Of a stretch of DNA of 55,368 nt, positions 2,473-18,179 are shown in pieces (the first letter of the stretch is position 1; the number at the start of each line of letters is the position of its first letter). The notes under the pieces are model-generated. The model did not search any database and was not told the origin of the DNA. It was given only the letters and a program-made list of their open reading frames with translations. Where the stretch lies: the IMG/VR virus record IMGVR_UViG_3300049489_000171, positions 1 to 55,368 of that record. One strand, given 5' to 3'. This stretch comes from a virus (taxonomy: Duplodnaviria > Caudoviricetes). A program made the position numbers and the translations under genes.

Positions 2473-2612
2473 AAACTGAAGCTGAGGCGCGGGAGTCAAT
2501 TTGCCCGATTACTATGCATCCCTGCATGGGCAGGGTCTGCATGGCGATGGAGGCAGAGTGCAGCGATGTGCTGCGGGAGTGCGGGGAGGGAGGTGACAAT
2601 GAACAGGTTTAG
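2469..2612 (+). CDS. small, probably chimeric Cys-rich ORF (47 aa)
   Basis: MKTEAEARESICP...CMGRVCM fused to AMEAECSDVLRECGE, which is shared with 1257-1508. Confidence 0.5.
   Translation: MKTEAEARESICPITMHPCMGRVCMAMEAECSDVLRECGEGGDNEQV
2543..2587 (+). repeat. 45-bp direct repeat, copy 2
   Basis: Matches 1451-1495. Confidence 0.9.
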
Positions 2613-2817
2613 CGGTTCGGCCACTGTGCCGATGGACTACGAGGTTGCGATCAGCGGCATCAACGTCGAGGATGGCGAGTGCTGCCACTGCGACTGCCGC
2701 ACGCGCCGCATGTTTGTGAACGTGATGGGCAAGCGGATCGCCTACGCCTGCTGCTTTGAGCATTTGCAGACGGTGTACCCGCAGTACACGACTGACGCAA
2801 CGGAGTGGACGGAATGA
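2599..2817 (+). CDS. hypothetical Cys-rich protein
   Basis: GGAGG RBS; CCHC and CC motifs. Confidence 0.6.
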   Translation: MNRFSGSATVPMDYEVAISGINVEDGECCHCDCRTRRMFVNVMGKRIAYACCFEHLQTVYPQYTTDATEWTE

Positions 2818-3062
2818 CCAAACTAGAACAAGCCCGCAAGCTGCTGGCGGAGGCGGCGAAGGTGACTCGCAGTGCTGATTTGTGCTATCGCGCAGCAGCG
2901 AACGCGATGGCAAGTGATGCCGTTCGCCAGTACGCCGCCCTGCTGGACGTGGTGGAGGCGGCTCAGGGCATCCACATCAAACGCGACCGCGACGGGCAGC
3001 CGGTGATTACCGGGATGCTTGCGCTGAGTAAGGCGGTGAGGAAATGGGAGGAGATGGCATGA
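2814..3062 (+). CDS. hypothetical protein
   Basis: ATGA-coupled ORF within the operon. Confidence 0.65.
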   Translation: MTKLEQARKLLAEAAKVTRSADLCYRAAANAMASDAVRQYAALLDVVEAAQGIHIKRDRDGQPVITGMLALSKAVRKWEEMA

Positions 3063-3508
3063 AATACACAACCCTGAACAAAATCCGCGAGCACAACCCA
3101 TGTAAAGCTGGTTGGCAGATGTTGCTCACCAGTCTCGGCAAAGCTTCTGCTGACGACGAGCCGCTGGCGTTCATGACTATCCTCGACAGCAACGGGCTGG
3201 ATGATGCGCTTTGGTGTTTGCGGTCTGCGCCAGAGTACAACAAAGACTGGCGACTGTTCGCCGACTGGTGCGCCCGACAGGTGCAGGACCTGATGACAGA
3301 CCAGCGCAGTCTGGATACGCTCGATGTGCCCGAGCGGTACGCGCACGGACAGGCGACCGACGCCGAACTGGCAGCAGCGAGGGCCGCAGCAATGACCGCA
3401 GCGTGGGCCGCAGCAATGACCGCAGCGTGCGCCTGCCTTGCCGGCACAGCGAGGGCCGCAGCGCGGGCCGCACAAGCCAGCGAACTGCGCCGGGTGTTTG
3501 AATCATGA
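3059..3508 (+). CDS. conserved phage hypothetical protein with Ala-rich repeats
   Basis: TTLNKIREHNPCKAGW...NGLDDALWCL...ELAAARAAA pattern common in phage proteins. Confidence 0.75.
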   Translation: MKYTTLNKIREHNPCKAGWQMLLTSLGKASADDEPLAFMTILDSNGLDDALWCLRSAPEYNKDWRLFADWCARQVQDLMTDQRSLDTLDVPERYAHGQATDAELAAARAAAMTAAWAAAMTAACACLAGTARAAARAAQASELRRVFES

Positions 3509-11819: not shown

Positions 11820-11998
11820 TCACCGCCCTTGGCGAGTTCGTCGAGATCCCAGCGGGCAACTGGTCGGCGTCGCTGTGTGTCGAGGACGGCGTGAACGCGA
11901 TCCTGCTGGTTGACGACGCGCAGGAACCTCTGCTGCTCAAAGCGTTGAACGGGCAGTTGTACATCAAGCTGCTGGAGCCGGCGGAGGGGGAGCAGTGA
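11816..11998 (+). CDS. hypothetical protein
   Basis: Coupled at both ends. Confidence 0.55.
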   Translation: MITALGEFVEIPAGNWSASLCVEDGVNAILLVDDAQEPLLLKALNGQLYIKLLEPAEGEQ

Positions 11999-13632
11999 GC
12001 GCGTACTACAACGAACACGATCCTGGCGCAGCCGCGTGGCTGCGTGAACTGATAAAGCAGGGCCACATCGCAGACGGCGTGGTCGATGAACGGAGTATCG
12101 AAGATGTCCTCCCAAGCGAACTGGCTGGATTTACCCAGTGCCACTTCTTCGCCGGTATCGGTGGCTGGAGCTACGCCCTTCGACTGGCTGGATGGCCCGA
12201 CGACAAGCCAGTCTGGACAGGCTCCTGCCCCTGTCAACCTTTCAGCGTCGCAGGCAAAGGAAAAGGGACTGCTGACGAGCGACACCTCTGGCCTGCCTTC
12301 GCCTGGCTCATCCGCCAGTGTCGCCCTTCAGTCGTCTTTGGCGAACAGGTTGCGAGTCGTGCTGGCCGGGGTTGGCTCGCCGGAGTACGCACTGACCTGG
12401 AAGCAATGGGATATGCAGTCGGGGCCGCCGATCTGTGCGCTGCGGGCGTCGGCGCACCGCATATCCGGCAGCGATTGTTTTGGGTGGGGAACGCCGACCG
12501 TGCAGGACGGAAAGCATTCAACACTCAGCCCATCGGAACTGAAACGGGATCCAGCGAACTTGCGACTGCGGGCTCATTCGGCTGGCGGCGCGTATCCTTC
12601 GCAGCCGACTGTCTCGGAGGTGACCCCGGAGAACTCGGTGACGAATGCTCAATCTGTGGACTCGACTACAGCAACGACTGCGAATGTCCAGGGCCAACGC
12701 AAGATGACGAATACGAATACACAGAACTCGACGGAATCCTTCTCGCTCGCAGGTTGGGTCACGCCATCGACGAGGGACTGGAAGGATACGCCGGGCATGG
12801 CGACGACGGGCACGAACCCGGATGGCTCGACACGGACCAGGATCGACCAGTTGCCGAGGCAGGCGGCGATAGCTGGTCAAACAGCGTCTGGATTCCCTGC
12901 GCAGACGGGAAATCGCGGCGCATTGTCGCCCGTCTTGCCTTGCTTCCTGATGGGATACCCCATACAATGGCTTCACTGCGTTCCACGCAAGGAGAAGTGA
13001 ATGCCGAGGCCACCGTTACCCGTCCCGACGAAGCACTGCAAATCCTGCGGCATGAAGATGGAGCGGAAGCGGTACGGAGCCGCGCTGGAAGATCGCCCGA
13101 CCTTCATGCGTCGGACGTTTTGCAACCGTGCGTGCATGGCAGCGTGGATGGAGGGACAGATCAAGGTTCCAACCCCAAAGAACAGCCGTCGCCAGTCGGC
13201 CAAGGAGAAAGCAGCGGCGTGCGCGAAGTGCGGATCAATGAAGCGGCTCCAAGTGCACCACAAAGACGAGAACCCGCTAAACAACGACCGCTCGAATTTG
13301 GAGACGTTGTGCGCTACTTGCCACATGCGTACTCACTGGCAATCTTGGAAGGAGACGACGCGACGGCCCAGGGTCTGCTCCGTGTGTATGAAGCCTGCCC
13401 GTCACTTGGGTCTGTGCAACACGCACTACAGTCGGTTCCGTCGCTACGGCGATCCGCTTGTGGTCAAGAGGTTCAACGGGCATGGGACGCCGGTCTTTTT
13501 GAAGGCTTCGGAATCATGGCCTGCAACCCGCTCACCAAAGCGTTCCCGTCTCGATCCGTCGCCCTGAAGGGGCTTGGCAATGCCATCGTCCCGCAAGTCG
13601 CGGCGGCGTTCATCGAAGCCTGCGGACTCTGA
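11995..13632 (+). CDS. C5 DNA cytosine methyltransferase (large subunit) with long insertions
   Basis: Motif I FFAGIGG; IV GSCPCQPFS; VI GEQV; VIII HIRQRLFWVG; X GNAIVPQVAAAF; no obvious motif IX in this frame. Confidence 0.9.
   Translation: MSAYYNEHDPGAAAWLRELIKQGHIADGVVDERSIEDVLPSELAGFTQCHFFAGIGGWSYALRLAGWPDDKPVWTGSCPCQPFSVAGKGKGTADERHLWPAFAWLIRQCRPSVVFGEQVASRAGRGWLAGVRTDLEAMGYAVGAADLCAAGVGAPHIRQRLFWVGNADRAGRKAFNTQPIGTETGSSELATAGSFGWRRVSFAADCLGGDPGELGDECSICGLDYSNDCECPGPTQDDEYEYTELDGILLARRLGHAIDEGLEGYAGHGDDGHEPGWLDTDQDRPVAEAGGDSWSNSVWIPCADGKSRRIVARLALLPDGIPHTMASLRSTQGEVNAEATVTRPDEALQILRHEDGAEAVRSRAGRSPDLHASDVLQPCVHGSVDGGTDQGSNPKEQPSPVGQGESSGVREVRINEAAPSAPQRREPAKQRPLEFGDVVRYLPHAYSLAILEGDDATAQGLLRVYEACPSLGSVQHALQSVPSLRRSACGQEVQRAWDAGLFEGFGIMACNPLTKAFPSRSVALKGLGNAIVPQVAAAFIEACGL
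12104..13000 (+). CDS. probable methyltransferase small subunit, nested in the +1 frame
   Basis: GGAG at 12092 upstream of ATG 12104; WxTP repeats; C-terminal GALSPVLPCFLMGYPIQW resembles motif IX. Confidence 0.65.
   Translation: MSSQANWLDLPSATSSPVSVAGATPFDWLDGPTTSQSGQAPAPVNLSASQAKEKGLLTSDTSGLPSPGSSASVALQSSLANRLRVVLAGVGSPEYALTWKQWDMQSGPPICALRASAHRISGSDCFGWGTPTVQDGKHSTLSPSELKRDPANLRLRAHSAGGAYPSQPTVSEVTPENSVTNAQSVDSTTATTANVQGQRKMTNTNTQNSTESFSLAGWVTPSTRDWKDTPGMATTGTNPDGSTRTRIDQLPRQAAIAGQTASGFPAQTGNRGALSPVLPCFLMGYPIQWLHCVPRKEK
13001..13567 (+). CDS. HNH endonuclease nested in the +1 frame of the methyltransferase gene
   Basis: AAGGAGA RBS; CAKCGS..LQVHHKDENPLNNDRSNLETLCATCH; extra Cys motifs CKSC, FCNRAC, CSVC..LCNTH. 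Confidence 0.88.
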   Translation: MPRPPLPVPTKHCKSCGMKMERKRYGAALEDRPTFMRRTFCNRACMAAWMEGQIKVPTPKNSRRQSAKEKAAACAKCGSMKRLQVHHKDENPLNNDRSNLETLCATCHMRTHWQSWKETTRRPRVCSVCMKPARHLGLCNTHYSRFRRYGDPLVVKRFNGHGTPVFLKASESWPATRSPKRSRLDPSP

Positions 13633-13647
13633 GGACTGGCTGGCGAT

Positions 13648-16509
13648 ATGAAGGTCCACATCGACATCGAGACCTACAGCGAAGCGGACCTCAAGAAAGA
13701 AGGACTCTACCGCCACGCCAACGACTACAGCACCGAACTGCTGGTCGTCTGCTACGCCATCGACGACGGGCCTGTGATGACTTGGTGGCCGGTTCCAGAC
13801 GTGCCCGCCGCGCTGAGGGTGCCCCCCGCGCACGTTGGCGAGCAGGCGCCGGCAGACCTTCTCGCCGCTCTCGAAGCCGGCGCCACGGTCTACGCACACA
13901 ACGCGAGTTTCGAGAGAGCCGTTCTCTCTGGTCACGTCGGACGGCGTCACGGCTTCCCGGTCCTGCGGCCAAGCCGCATGGTCTGCACCGCAGCCAAAGC
14001 GGCGGCACACGGCCTGCCGCGCTCCCTGGAGGACGCCTGCAAGGCTATTGGCACCCGACCCAAGATGGCCAGCGGCAGAGCCAACATGCTTCAGTTGGCC
14101 AAGCCGCGTACTGGCAAGCAGCACCGCTACGAGATGGCGGACTACCCGGAGAAGTACGCGGACCTGGCCGCGTATTGCGTGGACGACGTGCGGGCCGAAC
14201 GTGACCTCGACCGCCGGCTCCCTGACCTCACCCCGAGAGAGCAGGCGGTCTGGGAGCTCGACCAGTTGATCAACGACCGCGGCGTGCGGCTGGACCGCAA
14301 AGCCATTGCCGACGTGCAGTTTCTGATCGCCGAGTACAAGGCTGAACTGAAGAAACTGTGCATCGAGTGGACGGGCTGCAACCCGACCCAGACCGCCGAG
14401 ATCGCCAATTGGGTGCGCAAGCACGGCTACCCGCAGTTGGTCGATCTGCAGAAAGCCTCGGTCGACGTGGCACTGCAGGACGAGGCGTGTCCTGAGAACG
14501 TGCGCCAGGTGCTGCGCCTTCGGTCGACCTATGCGATGGCCGCGGTCGCCAAGTACACGGCGATGGAGACCTCGGTTGGCGATGACGACCGCCTGCGCGG
14601 GATGCTCTTGTACCACGGAGCGGCAACCGGCCGCTGGGCCTCGCTGCTCGTGCAGCTTCAAAACATGTTCCGCCCGGTGATCAAGGACGTGCCGACCGCG
14701 ATCGAGGCGTTCGCCTTGCGTGACCTGCAGTGGGTCAAAGATCTGTACCCGGCCGACCCTATGAAGGTCTTCGCCTCGGCGGTCAGGGGCATGATCATCC
14801 CCGCTGAGGGGAAAGACCTGATGGCGTTGGACTTCAGCGCCATTGAGGCCCGGGTGCTGGCATGGCTCGCGGGTCAACGCGACATCCTCGCCGTGTTCGC
14901 CACCCACGGCAAGGTCTACGAGTACACCGCGGGGCAGATTTACCGGGTGCCGCTGGAGAAGGTCACCGAGGCCCAGCGGTTCATCGGCAAGGTCGCCGTG
15001 CTGGCACTGGGCTACCAGGGTGGTCAGGCAGCGTTCGCCAAGATGGCCAAGAACTTCGGCGTTGACATCCCCGAGGAGCGGGCCAACGAGATCAAGAACG
15101 ACTGGCGCAAGGCCAACAACTTCATCGTCCAGTTCTGGTACGACATCGAGACCGCGGCCAAAGCAGCGGTCGGTAACCCTGGGCAGGCGTTCGGTGTGCC
15201 GTCCAAGCGGATCGTCTTCTGTGTGAAAGACCGTTGGTTGGTGATGCGCCTGCCGTCGGGCCGCAAGCTGTACTACCTCGACCCGGAGATCGACGAGAAC
15301 GGCCAAGTCACATACATGGGCGTGGACACGTACACGCGCCGCTGGTGCAGGGTCGGAACGTATGGCGGGAAGCTCTGCCTTGCGGGGGACACGGAAGTGC
15401 TCACTGATAAAGGGTGGCTGCCGATTAGCCAGTACCGTGAGGGGGCCAGACTGTGGGACGGAGCGGCTTGGGTTTACGGTGGTAAGCTACTTGATCAAGG
15501 GGTCAAGCCTGTAATACGCTACGCGGGCGTTTGGATGACTTCTGATCACGAGGTACTGTCGAATGAAGGCTGGAAAACCGCCGAAGCTATGGCATCGGGC
15601 CAAGGACTTGAGCGGGCGCAAGTTCGCCTACCTGACTGTTCTCCGGTACTCTCACAGCGAGCGTGGCAAGACGTTCTGGGTTCTGCGGTGCGAGTGCGGG
15701 AAAGAGACGGTGGCCGAGGGGGCCGGATTGACTCGAGCCCGCGGCCCTTCACCGAAGTCATGTGGGTGCAAGACCGGCGCGTTGATTGCCGCGGGCAACA
15801 CGCAACACGGCCTGTCCAAGCACCCGGCGTACTGGGTGTATCGAAGCATGATCGACCGCTGTCGGCTGCCGTCTCATCAGGCATGGCACAACTATGGCGG
15901 CAGGGGTATACGGGTTTGCGCACGCTGGCGGAAAGGCTTTGCGTTCTTCTGGGCAGACATGGAGCGCGGATATCAGCCAGGGCTGTGCTTGGAGCGGGTG
16001 AACAACGCGAAGGGGTATTCGCCCGAGAACTGTCGGTGGGCTACGTACAGGGAGCAGGCCAACAATACGCGCATGAACCGAAAGATAAATACCCTTTGGG
16101 GGCTGATGACGGTCACTCAAGCCGGCAGAAAGGCCGGGCTTCTGAATACAACGATCCTCGAAAGGATCAAAAGAGGTTGGCCGGAGAGCAGACTGCTCGA
16201 ACCTACGACATAGCCAACGTCGGGCCGCGCAATCGCTTCACGGTTCGTGGCGACGCCGGAGAGGTGTTTATCGTCCACAACTGCGAAAACAGTGTGCAAG
16301 CTATTGCGCGCGACCTGCTGGTCAACGGTATGTTCGAGTTGGAGGCGGCCGGCTACCCCCTGGTCCTGACCGTGCATGACGAGGTGGTCATGGAAGTGGA
16401 CTCTGGCGATCTGGACGAGGCGGCGGCGCTGATGTGCCGGTTGCCAGAATGGGCGAAGGGGCTGCCAGTTAAGGCTGAAGGTTGGGTTGGGGTTCGTTAC
16501 AGGAAGTAA
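13648..16509 (+). CDS. polA: family A DNA polymerase, intein-containing precursor (about 651 aa after splicing)
   Basis: Exonuclease DIETYS, AHNASFER, YCVDDV; TGRWAS; motif A DFSAIEARV; motif B RFIGKVAVLALGY; motif C VHDEV. Confidence 0.93.
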   Translation: MKVHIDIETYSEADLKKEGLYRHANDYSTELLVVCYAIDDGPVMTWWPVPDVPAALRVPPAHVGEQAPADLLAALEAGATVYAHNASFERAVLSGHVGRRHGFPVLRPSRMVCTAAKAAAHGLPRSLEDACKAIGTRPKMASGRANMLQLAKPRTGKQHRYEMADYPEKYADLAAYCVDDVRAERDLDRRLPDLTPREQAVWELDQLINDRGVRLDRKAIADVQFLIAEYKAELKKLCIEWTGCNPTQTAEIANWVRKHGYPQLVDLQKASVDVALQDEACPENVRQVLRLRSTYAMAAVAKYTAMETSVGDDDRLRGMLLYHGAATGRWASLLVQLQNMFRPVIKDVPTAIEAFALRDLQWVKDLYPADPMKVFASAVRGMIIPAEGKDLMALDFSAIEARVLAWLAGQRDILAVFATHGKVYEYTAGQIYRVPLEKVTEAQRFIGKVAVLALGYQGGQAAFAKMAKNFGVDIPEERANEIKNDWRKANNFIVQFWYDIETAAKAAVGNPGQAFGVPSKRIVFCVKDRWLVMRLPSGRKLYYLDPEIDENGQVTYMGVDTYTRRWCRVGTYGGKLCLAGDTEVLTDKGWLPISQYREGARLWDGAAWVYGGKLLDQGVKPVIRYAGVWMTSDHEVLSNEGWKTAEAMASGQGLERAQVRLPDCSPVLSQRAWQDVLGSAVRVRERDGGRGGRIDSSPRPFTEVMWVQDRRVDCRGQHATRPVQAPGVLGVSKHDRPLSAAVSSGMAQLWRQGYTGLRTLAERLCVLLGRHGARISARAVLGAGEQREGVFARELSVGYVQGAGQQYAHEPKDKYPLGADDGHSSRQKGRASEYNDPRKDQKRLAGEQTARTYDIANVGPRNRFTVRGDAGEVFIVHNCENSVQAIARDLLVNGMFELEAAGYPLVLTVHDEVVMEVDSGDLDEAAALMCRLPEWAKGLPVKAEGWVGVRYRK
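15376..16281 (+). mobile_element. intein (302 aa) in DNA polymerase
   Basis: Block A CLAGDTEVLTDKGW; block B MTSDHEV; block F TYDI; block G FIVHN followed by Cys; the exteins join as YGGKL-CENSVQAIARD. Confidence 0.92.
15563..16213 (+). CDS. HNH homing endonuclease in the +1 frame inside the intein
   Basis: DLSGRKFAYLTV; RCECG; SCGC; MIDRC; YGGRGIRVC; LERVNNAKGYSPENCRWAT..EQANN; GAGGT at 15550-15554 upstream of the ATG. Confidence 0.9.
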   Translation: MKAGKPPKLWHRAKDLSGRKFAYLTVLRYSHSERGKTFWVLRCECGKETVAEGAGLTRARGPSPKSCGCKTGALIAAGNTQHGLSKHPAYWVYRSMIDRCRLPSHQAWHNYGGRGIRVCARWRKGFAFFWADMERGYQPGLCLERVNNAKGYSPENCRWATYREQANNTRMNRKINTLWGLMTVTQAGRKAGLLNTTILERIKRGWPESRLLEPTT

Positions 16510-16510
16510 A

Positions 16511-16783
16511 ATGAGAGAAGGCCCCATTCAAAAGAACGTGGTCGCCTATGCCCGCAAGAAAGGTTTCTGGGCGCGCAAGTTCGTCAGCCAGCATCGCCGG
16601 TCGGCGCCTGACTTCATCTTCGGGTGGGATCGCCAAATCTGGTTCATCGAGTTTAAGGCGACAGGCGAGCAGCCTACCGAGTTGCAGGCCAAGGAGCACA
16701 AAGAGATGCGCGATGTCGGGCTGACCGTCTACGTTGTTGACGACATCGACACAGGGCGCGCCATCATAGACTCGTATGCTTAG
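16511..16783 (+). CDS. VRR-NUC domain nuclease
   Basis: MREGPIQ; APDFI; FIEFKATG..PTELQ. Confidence 0.88.
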   Translation: MREGPIQKNVVAYARKKGFWARKFVSQHRRSAPDFIFGWDRQIWFIEFKATGEQPTELQAKEHKEMRDVGLTVYVVDDIDTGRAIIDSYA

Positions 16784-18179
16784 CCGCTCTGACTTCCGCC
16801 CCTACCAGACCCGCGCCGTCGAGTGGTTCAAGGACCACACGCATTGCGCCGGGTGGATTTTCCTTGGGGGCGGGAAAACGATTTCCACCCTCACCGCCTA
16901 CGACGAACTGCGTCAGGCCGGCGAGGTCAAGAAGATGCTCGTGGTGGCCCCCTTGCGCGTGGCTCGCTCGGTCTGGCACGAACAAGCCGCCGAGTGGGAG
17001 CATACCCGCCACCTCAAGGTCAGCAAGATCCTCGGCACGCCCGAACAGCGGCTGGCCGCGCTGCGCGCCAAGGCCGACGTCTACACCATCAACCGCGAGA
17101 ACCTGTGCTGGCTGCGCGACCTGATCATCCAGAACAAGAAGCAGGTCAAGGCGTGGCCCTTCGACATGGTGGTGCTGGACGAGTCATCGAGCTACAAGAC
17201 GCAAGGGTCAAACCGCTTCAAGGCGATGCGGCAACTCCGTGTGCTGTGCAAGCGCCTGGTCGAACTCACCGGGACGCCAGCCCCCAACCGCCTGCCGGAC
17301 CTGTGGGCGCAGATGTACCTGATCGACCGGGGCCAGCGGCTCGGGGCCACCGAGACAGCGTACCGTGAGCGGTGGTTCAACAAACCAGGGTATGGCGAGT
17401 ACAAGTGGACGCTGAAGAAGGGCGCGCAGGAGGCGATCTACGCGGCGGTGGCTGACGTGGTGCTCTCGCTGAACGAGTCTGACTACATGGACTTGCCGCG
17501 GGTCATTCCGGTGCCGGTGCTGGTGCGACTCAGCCCGAAGGCTATGGCTGAGTACAAGCGCTTTGAGCGCACGTTCGTCATGCAGGCTGGGGAGCGTCAG
17601 GTCAGCGCGGTCAGCGCCGGAGCCCTGCACGGCAAGCTCTGCCAGCTGGCAAACGGCGCGGTCTACACCGATGACAAGGGAACGTTCCACGAATTTCACG
17701 ACGAGAAGCTGGACGCGCTGATCGAGCAGGTCGATGGCGCCAGCGGGCCGATGATCGTGGTGTACTCGTTCCGGTCAGAGCTTGCGCGCATACAGGCGCG
17801 GCTCGCCAAAGAGTACGGCGATGGCTTAAGGGTCGAGGTTTTGGATTCGCAAGCCAGCGAGGACCGCTGGAATCGAGGTGAGACGGATGTGCTCCTGCTG
17901 CACCCGGAGTCGGCGGGGCACGGACTAAACCTGCAGCACAGCGGGGCGGAGCTTATAGTTTGGATGTCAGCTACGGCCAACCTGGAGCATTTTGATCAAG
18001 TCAACGCCCGGTTAGCCGGAGGGCATCGGCGCCGCGGTGGGTTGGTGGTGGCCTATATATCAGCGGTCGACACGGTCGATGATAAGTTGGTCAGGCTTCT
18101 GAAGGAGAAGACGGTGGAGCAAGACGCATTGCGGGTTGGCGTGGCGCGGTTGAACAACGACGATTGGTTGGCGATATGA
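16776..18179 (+). CDS. SNF2-family helicase
   Basis: RPYQ; LGGGKT; VVLDESS; LTGTPAPN; AGHGLNLQ. Confidence 0.9.
   Translation: MLSRSDFRPYQTRAVEWFKDHTHCAGWIFLGGGKTISTLTAYDELRQAGEVKKMLVVAPLRVARSVWHEQAAEWEHTRHLKVSKILGTPEQRLAALRAKADVYTINRENLCWLRDLIIQNKKQVKAWPFDMVVLDESSSYKTQGSNRFKAMRQLRVLCKRLVELTGTPAPNRLPDLWAQMYLIDRGQRLGATETAYRERWFNKPGYGEYKWTLKKGAQEAIYAAVADVVLSLNESDYMDLPRVIPVPVLVRLSPKAMAEYKRFERTFVMQAGERQVSAVSAGALHGKLCQLANGAVYTDDKGTFHEFHDEKLDALIEQVDGASGPMIVVYSFRSELARIQARLAKEYGDGLRVEVLDSQASEDRWNRGETDVLLLHPESAGHGLNLQHSGAELIVWMSATANLEHFDQVNARLAGGHRRRGGLVVAYISAVDTVDDKLVRLLKEKTVEQDALRVGVARLNNDDWLAI

Follow-up and report, generated by a model that had tools for sequence, protein, structure and literature searches.

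Inteins are usually taught as single polypeptides that carry their homing endonuclease in frame. A different arrangement was found in the gene for DNA polymerase on a phage record from IMG/VR (IMGVR_UViG_3300049489_000171), which was analyzed over its full length of 55,368 bases (completeness estimate 79%) and is called the window in the following. The gene encodes a family-A DNA polymerase precursor in one open reading frame (ORF), and this frame runs without a stop through a class-1 intein. Between the two splicing parts of the intein lies a second ORF, shifted by +1 relative to the polymerase frame, for an HNH-like putative homing endonuclease (Table 1). The two reading frames share conserved codons at both borders. 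The codons CAC GAG GTA at the block B histidine supply a Shine-Dalgarno (SD)-like GAGGT 8 nt before the ATG of the nested ORF, and its TAG is read from ACC TAC GAC ATA GCC within block F. The initial annotation had described the polymerase intein, its blocks, and the nested ORF together with these start and stop signals, and all of them were verified in the sequence; its figure of 651 residues for the predicted spliced polymerase agrees with 953 minus 302.

The insert starts with CLAGDTEV and finishes with FIVHN, after which the C-extein opens with a cysteine (CEN). It was aligned with 55 of the 87 proteins retrieved by a search with the intein region, double-intein and partial ones being left out. 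Cys1, Thr55, His58, Asp278, and Asn302 were invariant in all 56 aligned inteins, and His301 and the +1 cysteine of the C-extein were conserved in at least 90% of them. An AlphaFold2 model calculated on this alignment had pLDDT (predicted local distance difference test) values of 86-98 for residues 1-89 and 94-97 for residues 271-302; residues 90-270 were mostly coil with values of 42-74. In a Foldseek comparison with the PDB, the top 11 matches of the model were all mini-inteins or HINT domains (E 1.3e-4 to 9.3e-4, probability 1.0), with DnaX, Ssp DnaB, gp41-1, RecA, and Npu DnaB among them, so that a HINT fold is predicted for the two ends. An intein-less allele was also recovered. A contig from run X3, which like runs X2 and X4 belongs to a study other than the likely source run X1, is 93% identical to the window over 15300-15375, departs from it exactly at 15375/15376, and continues with TENAVQAIA (hand translation), i.e. 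GKL is followed directly by TEN. Many phage polymerases that lack the insert gave alignments split into two segments, with a coverage of 68-75%. Among APSE phages, "differential loss" of the intein has been reported (PMC7313666).

Other classes of insert were considered and rejected. A canonical bifunctional intein was rejected on three observations: Pfam and NCBIfam find no in-frame endonuclease domain, in line with the missing motif noted in the initial annotation; the middle of the model has low pLDDT; and this part is not under selection in the polymerase frame (see below). A split intein or fractured gene was dismissed, the host gene being a single 953-residue ORF and not two. The same holds for a group I intron with an endonuclease ORF: the host frame is open, and an Rfam scan of 15000-16700 gave zero matches at E <= 1, neither to a group I intron nor to a frameshift element, which speaks against such an intron.

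A frame-specific selection analysis, one of the checks suggested with the initial annotation, separated the two genes. Among 15 gap-free close pairs, which were drawn from six groups and are thus not independent, 833 of 1788 differences in the interior of the overlap were synonymous in the +1 frame and 120 of 1794 were synonymous in the polymerase frame, whereas in the splicing-only parts the corresponding values were 70 of 790 and 364 of 794. This reversal of the synonymous pattern between the regions implies that selection acts on the intein frame at both ends and on the nested gene between them. In nine nested genes (187 columns), the mean pairwise nucleotide diversity at codon positions 1, 2, and 3 of the HNH frame was 0.42, 0.37, and 0.62, respectively.

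The polymerase frame was nevertheless kept open across the unselected middle. When the +1 gene of the window was permuted synonymously, the polymerase frame acquired 7.15 stops on average and was open in 0 of 5000 permutations; no stop is observed in it. The same frame was free of stops in nine of nine nested sequences, compared with means of 1.9-14.9 expected from permutation, and the probability of finding it open was <=0.0008 in seven of them, 0.012 in that of Shewanella phage SFCi1 (L003), and 0.11 in L004, the most GC-rich one. The third frame contained 7-16 stops in these nine sequences. The earlier claim that the intein frame has to stay stop-free is consistent with these counts. A middle part that is stop-free yet unselected is the signature of a frame that is presumably read through, its amino acids being irrelevant.

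The nested ORF is a genuine gene, with a large family of relatives in phages. Its product matched the PHROG "HNH endonuclease" families phrog_374 (E 7.9e-54) and phrog_3377 (E 1.5e-46), "HNH" being the PHROG name and an annotation only, and of 50,697 phage records searched by tblastn, 945 contained relatives. The model of the protein (mean pLDDT 89.8) has strands at residues 142-145 and 157-160 and a helix at residues 162-167, and it matched 133 BFVD models at E <= 1e-3, which are named HNH endonuclease, helix-turn-helix (HTH) homing endonuclease, or AP2. No match to the protein was obtained with phmmer in the PDB, and none at E <= 1e-3 when its model was compared with the PDB by Foldseek. A profile of the family had a sole match among PDB sequences, the intron-encoded I-HmuI of Bacillus phage SPO1 (1U3E), which was marginal (E 0.056) and covered the putative beta-beta-alpha motif. 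In this alignment, the D-H pair of I-HmuI stands opposite D/E-R in the nested family. Two asparagines of the motif and a cluster of four cysteines were kept across 29 sequences of the family; the cysteine cluster is likely a zinc ribbon. Pfam searches with these 29 members gave just scattered weak HTH matches, in one member each.

Table 1. Features of the intein-containing polymerase locus. Positions refer to the window except in the last three rows, which give positions within the respective locus.
Feature	Position	Strand	Basis or remark
Family-A DNA polymerase precursor, 953 residues, one open frame across the intein	13648-16509	+	Pfam PF00476 (DNA_pol_A), E 1.3e-20
N-extein, 576 residues, ending ...TYGGKL	13648-15375	+	Alignment; intein-less allele in run X3 departs right after 15375
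Class-1 intein, 302 residues, polymerase frame (residues 577-878 of precursor)	15376-16281	+	Invariant residues; predicted HINT fold
N-terminal splicing part of intein, blocks A and B, residues 1-89	15376-15642	+	pLDDT 86-98
Block B T-x-x-H (ACT TCT GAT CAC)	15538-15549	+	Alignment
GAGGT, SD-like motif for nested ORF, from intein codons Glu59-Val60	15550-15554	+	8 nt to ATG
Nested +1-frame ORF, 216 residues, HNH-like putative homing endonuclease	15563-16213	+	ATG at 15563, TAG at 16211-16213
Cysteine cluster of nested protein (C43, C45, C67, C69)	15689-15769	+	In 29 sequences, invariant or conserved to at least 90%
Beta-beta-alpha-like motif of nested protein, residues 141-168 (LERVNN...NCRWAT...EQANN)	15983-16066	+	Alignment with I-HmuI (1U3E), E 0.056
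Shadow-frame linker of intein, residues 90-270, polymerase frame, stop-free	15643-16185	+	Mostly pLDDT <50; no selection in this frame
Block F (TYDIANVGPRNRF, Asp278), containing the stop codon of the nested ORF	16201-16239	+	Alignment
Block G (VFIVHN) and +1 Cys of C-extein	16264-16284	+	Alignment
C-extein, 75 residues (CENSVQAIARD...VHDE...)	16282-16509	+	Alignment
Nested ORF in APSE-1 (L001)	2504-3154		
Nested ORF in GB2A (L002)	2513-3154		
Nested ORF in SFCi1 (L003)	2489-3163		

The signals for expression of the nested ORF fall into two layouts. In the window, SFCi1, and others, an ATG follows about 8 nt after a GAGGT formed by the block B His-Glu-Val codons. In APSE-1, Caulobacter phage GB2A, and others, an ATG or GTG stands just after Gly-Trp-Lys codons and is accompanied by GAAGG, GGAGG, or AAAGG, which are formed by Glu/Lys-Gly-Trp codons. 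In every case inspected, a stop that bounds the +1 open stretch occurs no more than 8 codons before a start codon. At the other end, the stop codon (TGA or TAG) is formed by the Tyr-Asp-Leu/Ile codons of block F in eight of the nine sequences inspected and lies further downstream, in block G, in L009. A promoter scan of 13300-16900 gave 0 sigma-70-like sites and two terminator-like sites on the minus strand, below shuffle expectation, a result that is neither support for nor evidence against a separate internal promoter. Internal initiation on the polymerase mRNA would be the simplest reading of this arrangement.

The same arrangement recurs in other phages. With 46-48% identity and a coverage of at least 95%, the nested protein had its 17 best tblastn matches exclusively within annotated DNA polymerase genes, i.e. 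in four Caulobacter phages, SFCi1, and twelve APSE records. In APSE-1, GB2A, and SFCi1, the match was +1 to the polymerase frame, which was open throughout. When 15200-16450 was compared by blastn in a distant mode with the 50,697 phage records, no match was found; thus, the relatives are visible at the protein level only. A search of IMG/VR with the nested protein gave 80 loci, of which five (L004, L005, L006, L008, and L009) had the nested layout. Among the other 75, 72 lacked a spanning ORF in another frame and three (L077, L082, L083) were too fragmentary to judge, indicating that the family is mostly free-standing. A search of IMG/VR with the intein alignment gave 41 loci, five of them shared with the former search. 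An HNH-like ORF was present in the +1 frame of 38 and in the +2 frame of one (L121), two (L122, L123) had no match, and none carried it in frame. The nested ORF was unbroken in 36 of the 38, L108 having an internal stop and L111 being truncated. Among genomes sampled at one per species, the intein found 12 loci, ten with the +1 layout and two with +2 (L134, a repeat of L121, and the broken L135). The host frame was broken in two of the +1 loci (L130, L131), and L136 ended at a contig end. Titles of these records name Parapusillimonas, Pseudoxanthomonas, Burkholderiales, Arsenophonus, Spirochaetae, Chloroflexota, Butyricicoccus, Lachnospiraceae, Oscillospiraceae, and an actinobacterium. Taken together, an in-frame nuclease was seen in 0 of 53 intein loci (41 from IMG/VR and 12 from species genomes).

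At the protein level, about 75 of the 87 sequences matching the intein region align over all 302 residues, the shadow part included, and their +1 gene is inferred from this shadow-peptide similarity. Relatives occupy PolA sites of the forms YGGKL/C..HN/CEN and YGGKxxEN/C..HN/CxQA and a GKVxxLx/C site, and the other exteins are SNF2 helicases, in which two sites are used. In P0067, P0080, P0082, and P0083, the same sites are occupied by mini-inteins of 115-158 residues.

Several individual loci deserve description. In L130, from a Butyricicoccus metagenome-assembled genome (MAG), an intact nested ORF (243 residues) is accompanied by a polymerase frame that is interrupted by a stop within the overlap. 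In L131/L111, from an APSE-like element of an Arsenophonus endosymbiont, intein and host frame are both truncated. Both look like decaying prophage copies. L121 (2554-3306) and L134 (titled actinobacterium MAG) are the same element, located at the PolA site VERFVGKT/C...HN/CVLGLGYG. Its +2-frame ORF encodes a distant HNH-like relative that matches over residues 95-178 only (E 4e-11), and it possibly arose by independent capture or by a change of frame. L008/L124, a contig cut at its 5' end with the intein end at 701, has a +1 HNH-like ORF within a non-polymerase gene. The 562-residue C-extein of this gene gave a sub-threshold match to Terminase_6N (E 0.011) and no PHROG match, so that "terminase" is a guess. 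In the window itself, a gene for an SNF2-family helicase (16776-18179, plus strand) lies downstream of the polymerase gene. Its product is an intein-free homologue, with 39% identity, of intein-containing helicases like P0011, and the alignment with P0011 breaks exactly at ...HGKL/CQLANGA, where P0011 has a sister intein of the two-frame family. In the window phage, the polymerase site is thus occupied and the helicase site is empty. The polymerase stop codon is overlapped by a 98-residue ORF at 16487-16783 (plus strand), for which Pfam gave no match; in the GB2A record, a gene at the equivalent place between polymerase and helicase is annotated "endonuclease".

A FastTree phylogeny was calculated from 79 proteins, comprising 39 that are +1-nested, 39 of the 75 free-standing ones (the longer matches), and the +2 case. 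Neither duplicates nor the broken L108 and L111 were included, and the tree is a quick one with an arbitrary root and Shimodaira-Hasegawa (SH)-like support only. It placed 38 of the 39 +1-nested proteins in one cluster with an SH-like support of 98, and cases from PolA site a, PolA site b, and SNF2 were interleaved inside this cluster. The nested protein of L008 stood among free-standing relatives, and L121 was on a long branch. This tree is in keeping with a single old capture that was followed by diversification and switching between sites, and with one or two further, separate events. Several host genes and sites, one empty allele, and one cluster of nested ORFs were observed, and the element may move as a unit. 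The initial annotation had also offered the locus as a possible intermediate in the acquisition of endonucleases by mini-inteins. This proposal is not favored, since the absence of any in-frame case among 53 loci together with the single deep cluster speaks for a long-lived state, and the two-frame intein looks like a stable condition of that kind.

From these results, we deduce with a probability of about 0.8 that the locus is a two-gene mobile element consisting of a polymerase intein and a separately translated +1 HNH-like gene. The first gene would be the class-1 intein in the polymerase frame, of which about 89 N-terminal and about 32 C-terminal residues would form the HINT splicing domain. 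The roughly 180 residues between them would be an unstructured shadow translation, for which it is only needed that no stop occurs and that the ends are able to meet. Splicing would remove the intein and leave the 651-residue polymerase joined at GKL-CEN. The second gene, initiated at its own start in the +1 frame, would encode the HNH-like protein with the cysteine cluster, the beta-beta-alpha-like motif, and C-terminal helices; the codons right behind block B would hold its SD and start, and block F its stop. Free-standing homing endonuclease genes suggest by analogy that its product would target intein-less alleles and so spread the whole element. The initial annotation had likewise proposed a composite element in which splicing discards the shadow peptide and the nuclease is translated separately, and the comparative evidence supports it: the nesting is conserved, selection switches between frames, the polymerase frame is open, starts and SD-like motifs are conserved, and HINT ends are predicted for the insert.

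A number of observations weigh against this deduction. In the curated collections, the intein reached only E 0.19 with Hint_2 of Pfam, below the 28.4-bit cut-off, and NCBIfam returned the RecA-intein model alone, at a sub-threshold E of 0.021, which indicates that the sequence family is poorly modelled. With regard to translation, an SD-like motif of at least 4 nt before an ATG, GTG, or TTG was counted by hand in 35 of 38 distinct loci, compared with a background of 23.5% of 9459 start-like triplets, but it was absent in three, the starts had been chosen among one to six candidates per locus, which weakens the count, and the motifs arise in part simply because intein codons (His-Glu-Val, Glu-Gly-Trp) are conserved. 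Decaying copies exist (L108, L111/L131, L130, L135). As for the nested protein, Pfam HNH models matched 0 of 29 sequences (the window protein and 28 relatives), and all 29 have an arginine (Arg145 in the window) at the position of the catalytic histidine of I-HmuI, as far as the marginal alignment goes (E 0.056). The invariant arginine suggests that the nested protein is an HNH relative lacking the usual catalytic histidine, with a putative nuclease activity. Other HNH variants use a different general base. The 216-residue ORF that the initial annotation described as a complete HNH gene was confirmed, its product being corrected to an HNH relative without the catalytic histidine.

The arginine bears on the possibility that the nested protein is made but serves as a sequence-specific DNA-binding protein and not as a nuclease, acting in trans or collaborative homing or in some other role of the phage. 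The missing Pfam HNH matches and the AP2 and HTH names among the BFVD relatives would fit such a function. This alternative is judged unlikely, since the gene behaves in a selfish manner, being scattered as a free-standing ORF through the 945 phage records and riding with the intein into several genes and sites, and since the Asp/Glu before the arginine and the two asparagines aligned with the HNH motif of I-HmuI are retained. The nested ORF might also be a fixed relic, i.e. a free-standing nuclease gene that entered a mini-intein and is tolerated unexpressed because splicing removes it. Visibly decaying copies and the presence of mini-intein relatives at the same sites agree with this idea, but purifying selection acts on the +1 frame across members that are just 42-54% identical to the window protein, the ORF is unbroken in nearly all IMG/VR loci that have it, and start codons and SD-like motifs are retained. 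A relic is therefore considered very improbable.

It could further be imagined that ribosomes move into the +1 frame behind block B and return ahead of block F, which would restore the canonical architecture as a single-chain intein-HNH protein, and the two frames do overlap over conserved sequence at both borders. Ribosomes leaving the polymerase frame would, however, remove the constraint on stops, so that a frame kept open against 2-15 expected stops counts against recoding. The +1 stretch is moreover closed by a stop shortly upstream of a start with its own SD, no conserved slippery or shift-prone motif was noticed in an informal look at the border alignments, and no frameshift element of Rfam was matched. 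We regard recoding as highly improbable. The contig was assembled from a metagenome, and the initial annotation had itself raised the possibility that two compensating indels conceal a canonical intein with an in-frame HNH domain. Such errors were looked for in contigs of runs X2, X3, and X4. These matched the window over 15428-15981 and 16057-16400 with 0 gaps and zero or one differing letter, and the indel table of the matching contigs was empty. The same +1 relation was found in three isolate phage genomes, 38 IMG/VR loci, and 10 genome loci, with none in frame, and an artefact would not yield a polymerase frame that is stop-free far beyond expectation. An assembly or sequencing artefact is thus virtually discounted.

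Returning to the two-gene element, an even chance is given to a more comprehensive account that joins its history with its mechanism. According to this account, one mini-intein captured a free-standing HNH-like gene, and an old, self-maintaining design resulted. Its clade would extend across phages and prophages recovered with Proteobacteria, Firmicutes, Spirochaetes, and Chloroflexi at about 45-50% protein identity, without the nuclease ever having moved in frame. The element would jump among at least two neighboring PolA sites and two SNF2-helicase sites, its two genes would be interlocked through the block B and F codons that provide ribosome-binding site, start, and stop, and the nuclease may work without the canonical HNH histidine.

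The deeply diverged family comprises about 50 DNA loci and about 75 further proteins aligned across the whole shadow region. It supports the view that the splicing domain came first in the origin of inteins and that endonuclease genes invaded later, and it suggests that overlapping-frame coding can stay stable for long. Gene callers hide the nested gene, domain searches show odd-length inteins without an endonuclease, and Pfam misses both genes. The family would provide a compact natural test case for the use of a ribosome-binding site inside a translated gene and for DNA cutting by an HNH fold in which arginine replaces the catalytic histidine.

Endonucleases outside the intein frame have been called "a rarity" in recent preprints, and for other inteins (dnaX; actinophages) this architecture has already been published. 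The two-frame PolA/SNF2 family with its HNH-like gene itself seems undescribed: no account of a PolA or SNF2 intein with an HNH-like gene in the +1 frame came up in full-text literature searches, which did not cover the 1999 APSE-1 paper and the preprint supplements. The family includes P45/P46 of the Hamiltonella phage APSE-1 (NC_000935). There, a homologous intein occupies the same polymerase site (TYGGKS/C...HN/CEN), and the nested protein is 46% identical to that of the window, lies in the same +1 frame, and has its stop in block F. P46 bears the RefSeq name "HNH endonuclease" and is annotated from an internal ATG (locus position 2732) with 141 residues. The N-terminal 80 residues are conserved, and a GTG with an SD-like motif is present at locus position 2504, which suggests a product of 216 residues, so that about 75 residues appear to be missing from the annotated P46. 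In the Caulobacter and Shewanella phage records, no nested gene is annotated.

A cyanobacterial dnaX intein has been described in which a LAGLIDADG endonuclease is encoded in an overlapping frame between the splicing blocks, with purifying selection on the endonuclease frame and relaxation of the extein frame (Phillips et al., 10.64898/2026.09.14.751524). That preprint also describes mini-intein relatives, proposes secondary invasion of a mini-intein, and credits the first proposal of overlapping frames in dnaX to Gorbalenya 1998. The window resembles dnaX in the other-frame endonuclease between splicing blocks and in the frame-dependent selection. The two differ in that the dnaX case concerns a LAGLIDADG enzyme, a cellular gene, and a "+2ORF", whereas the window has an HNH-like protein, the +1 frame, phage PolA/SNF2 hosts, and blocks B and F that contain the SD, the start, and the stop. 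Inteins with the endonuclease in a separate frame or on the other strand have also been described in actinobacteriophages, with the argument that free-standing endonuclease genes invaded inteins and that the units still move (Gosselin, Arsenault & Gogarten, 10.1101/2025.01.02.630785). The types listed there are an endonuclease-VII-like protein in frame 3, an antisense LAGLIDADG, and an antisense VSR-like protein; the HNH inteins of that account are in frame.

Phage ShiLan (PMC11855218) offers a likeness of another kind. An out-of-frame HNH gene, with its own start close to the insert's 5' end and a stop at the 3' end, lies within a phage methylase ORF that is kept open. The ShiLan insert, as described, has no detectable splicing domain, whereas that of the window is flanked by what is predicted to be a complete HINT domain. 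A layout similar to that of ShiLan was seen just upstream of the polymerase gene of the window, in a gene for a C5 DNA methylase (11995-13632, plus strand; PF00145, E 2.8e-15) with an open frame of 545 residues. Its +1 frame contains a nested ORF of 188 residues at 13001-13567, which has a canonical HNH motif and matches phrog_1271 (E 2.9e-16); the Pfam matches to PF01844 (E 3.5e-4) and PF13392 (E 1.5e-4) are both just below the cut-off. A further +1 ORF of 304 residues at 12086-13000 matches the PHROG "DNA methyltransferase" family phrog_1008 (E 4.3e-15). On the strength of this resemblance, two neighboring out-of-frame nuclease genes may be present in the window. Fractured genes (Dassa et al. 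2009, PMC2677866) share with the window a free-standing endonuclease gene in the intein slot and short coding overlaps. In fractured genes, however, the host is divided into two ORFs whose products are joined by trans-splicing, whereas the host frame of the window is continuous and cis-splicing is predicted.

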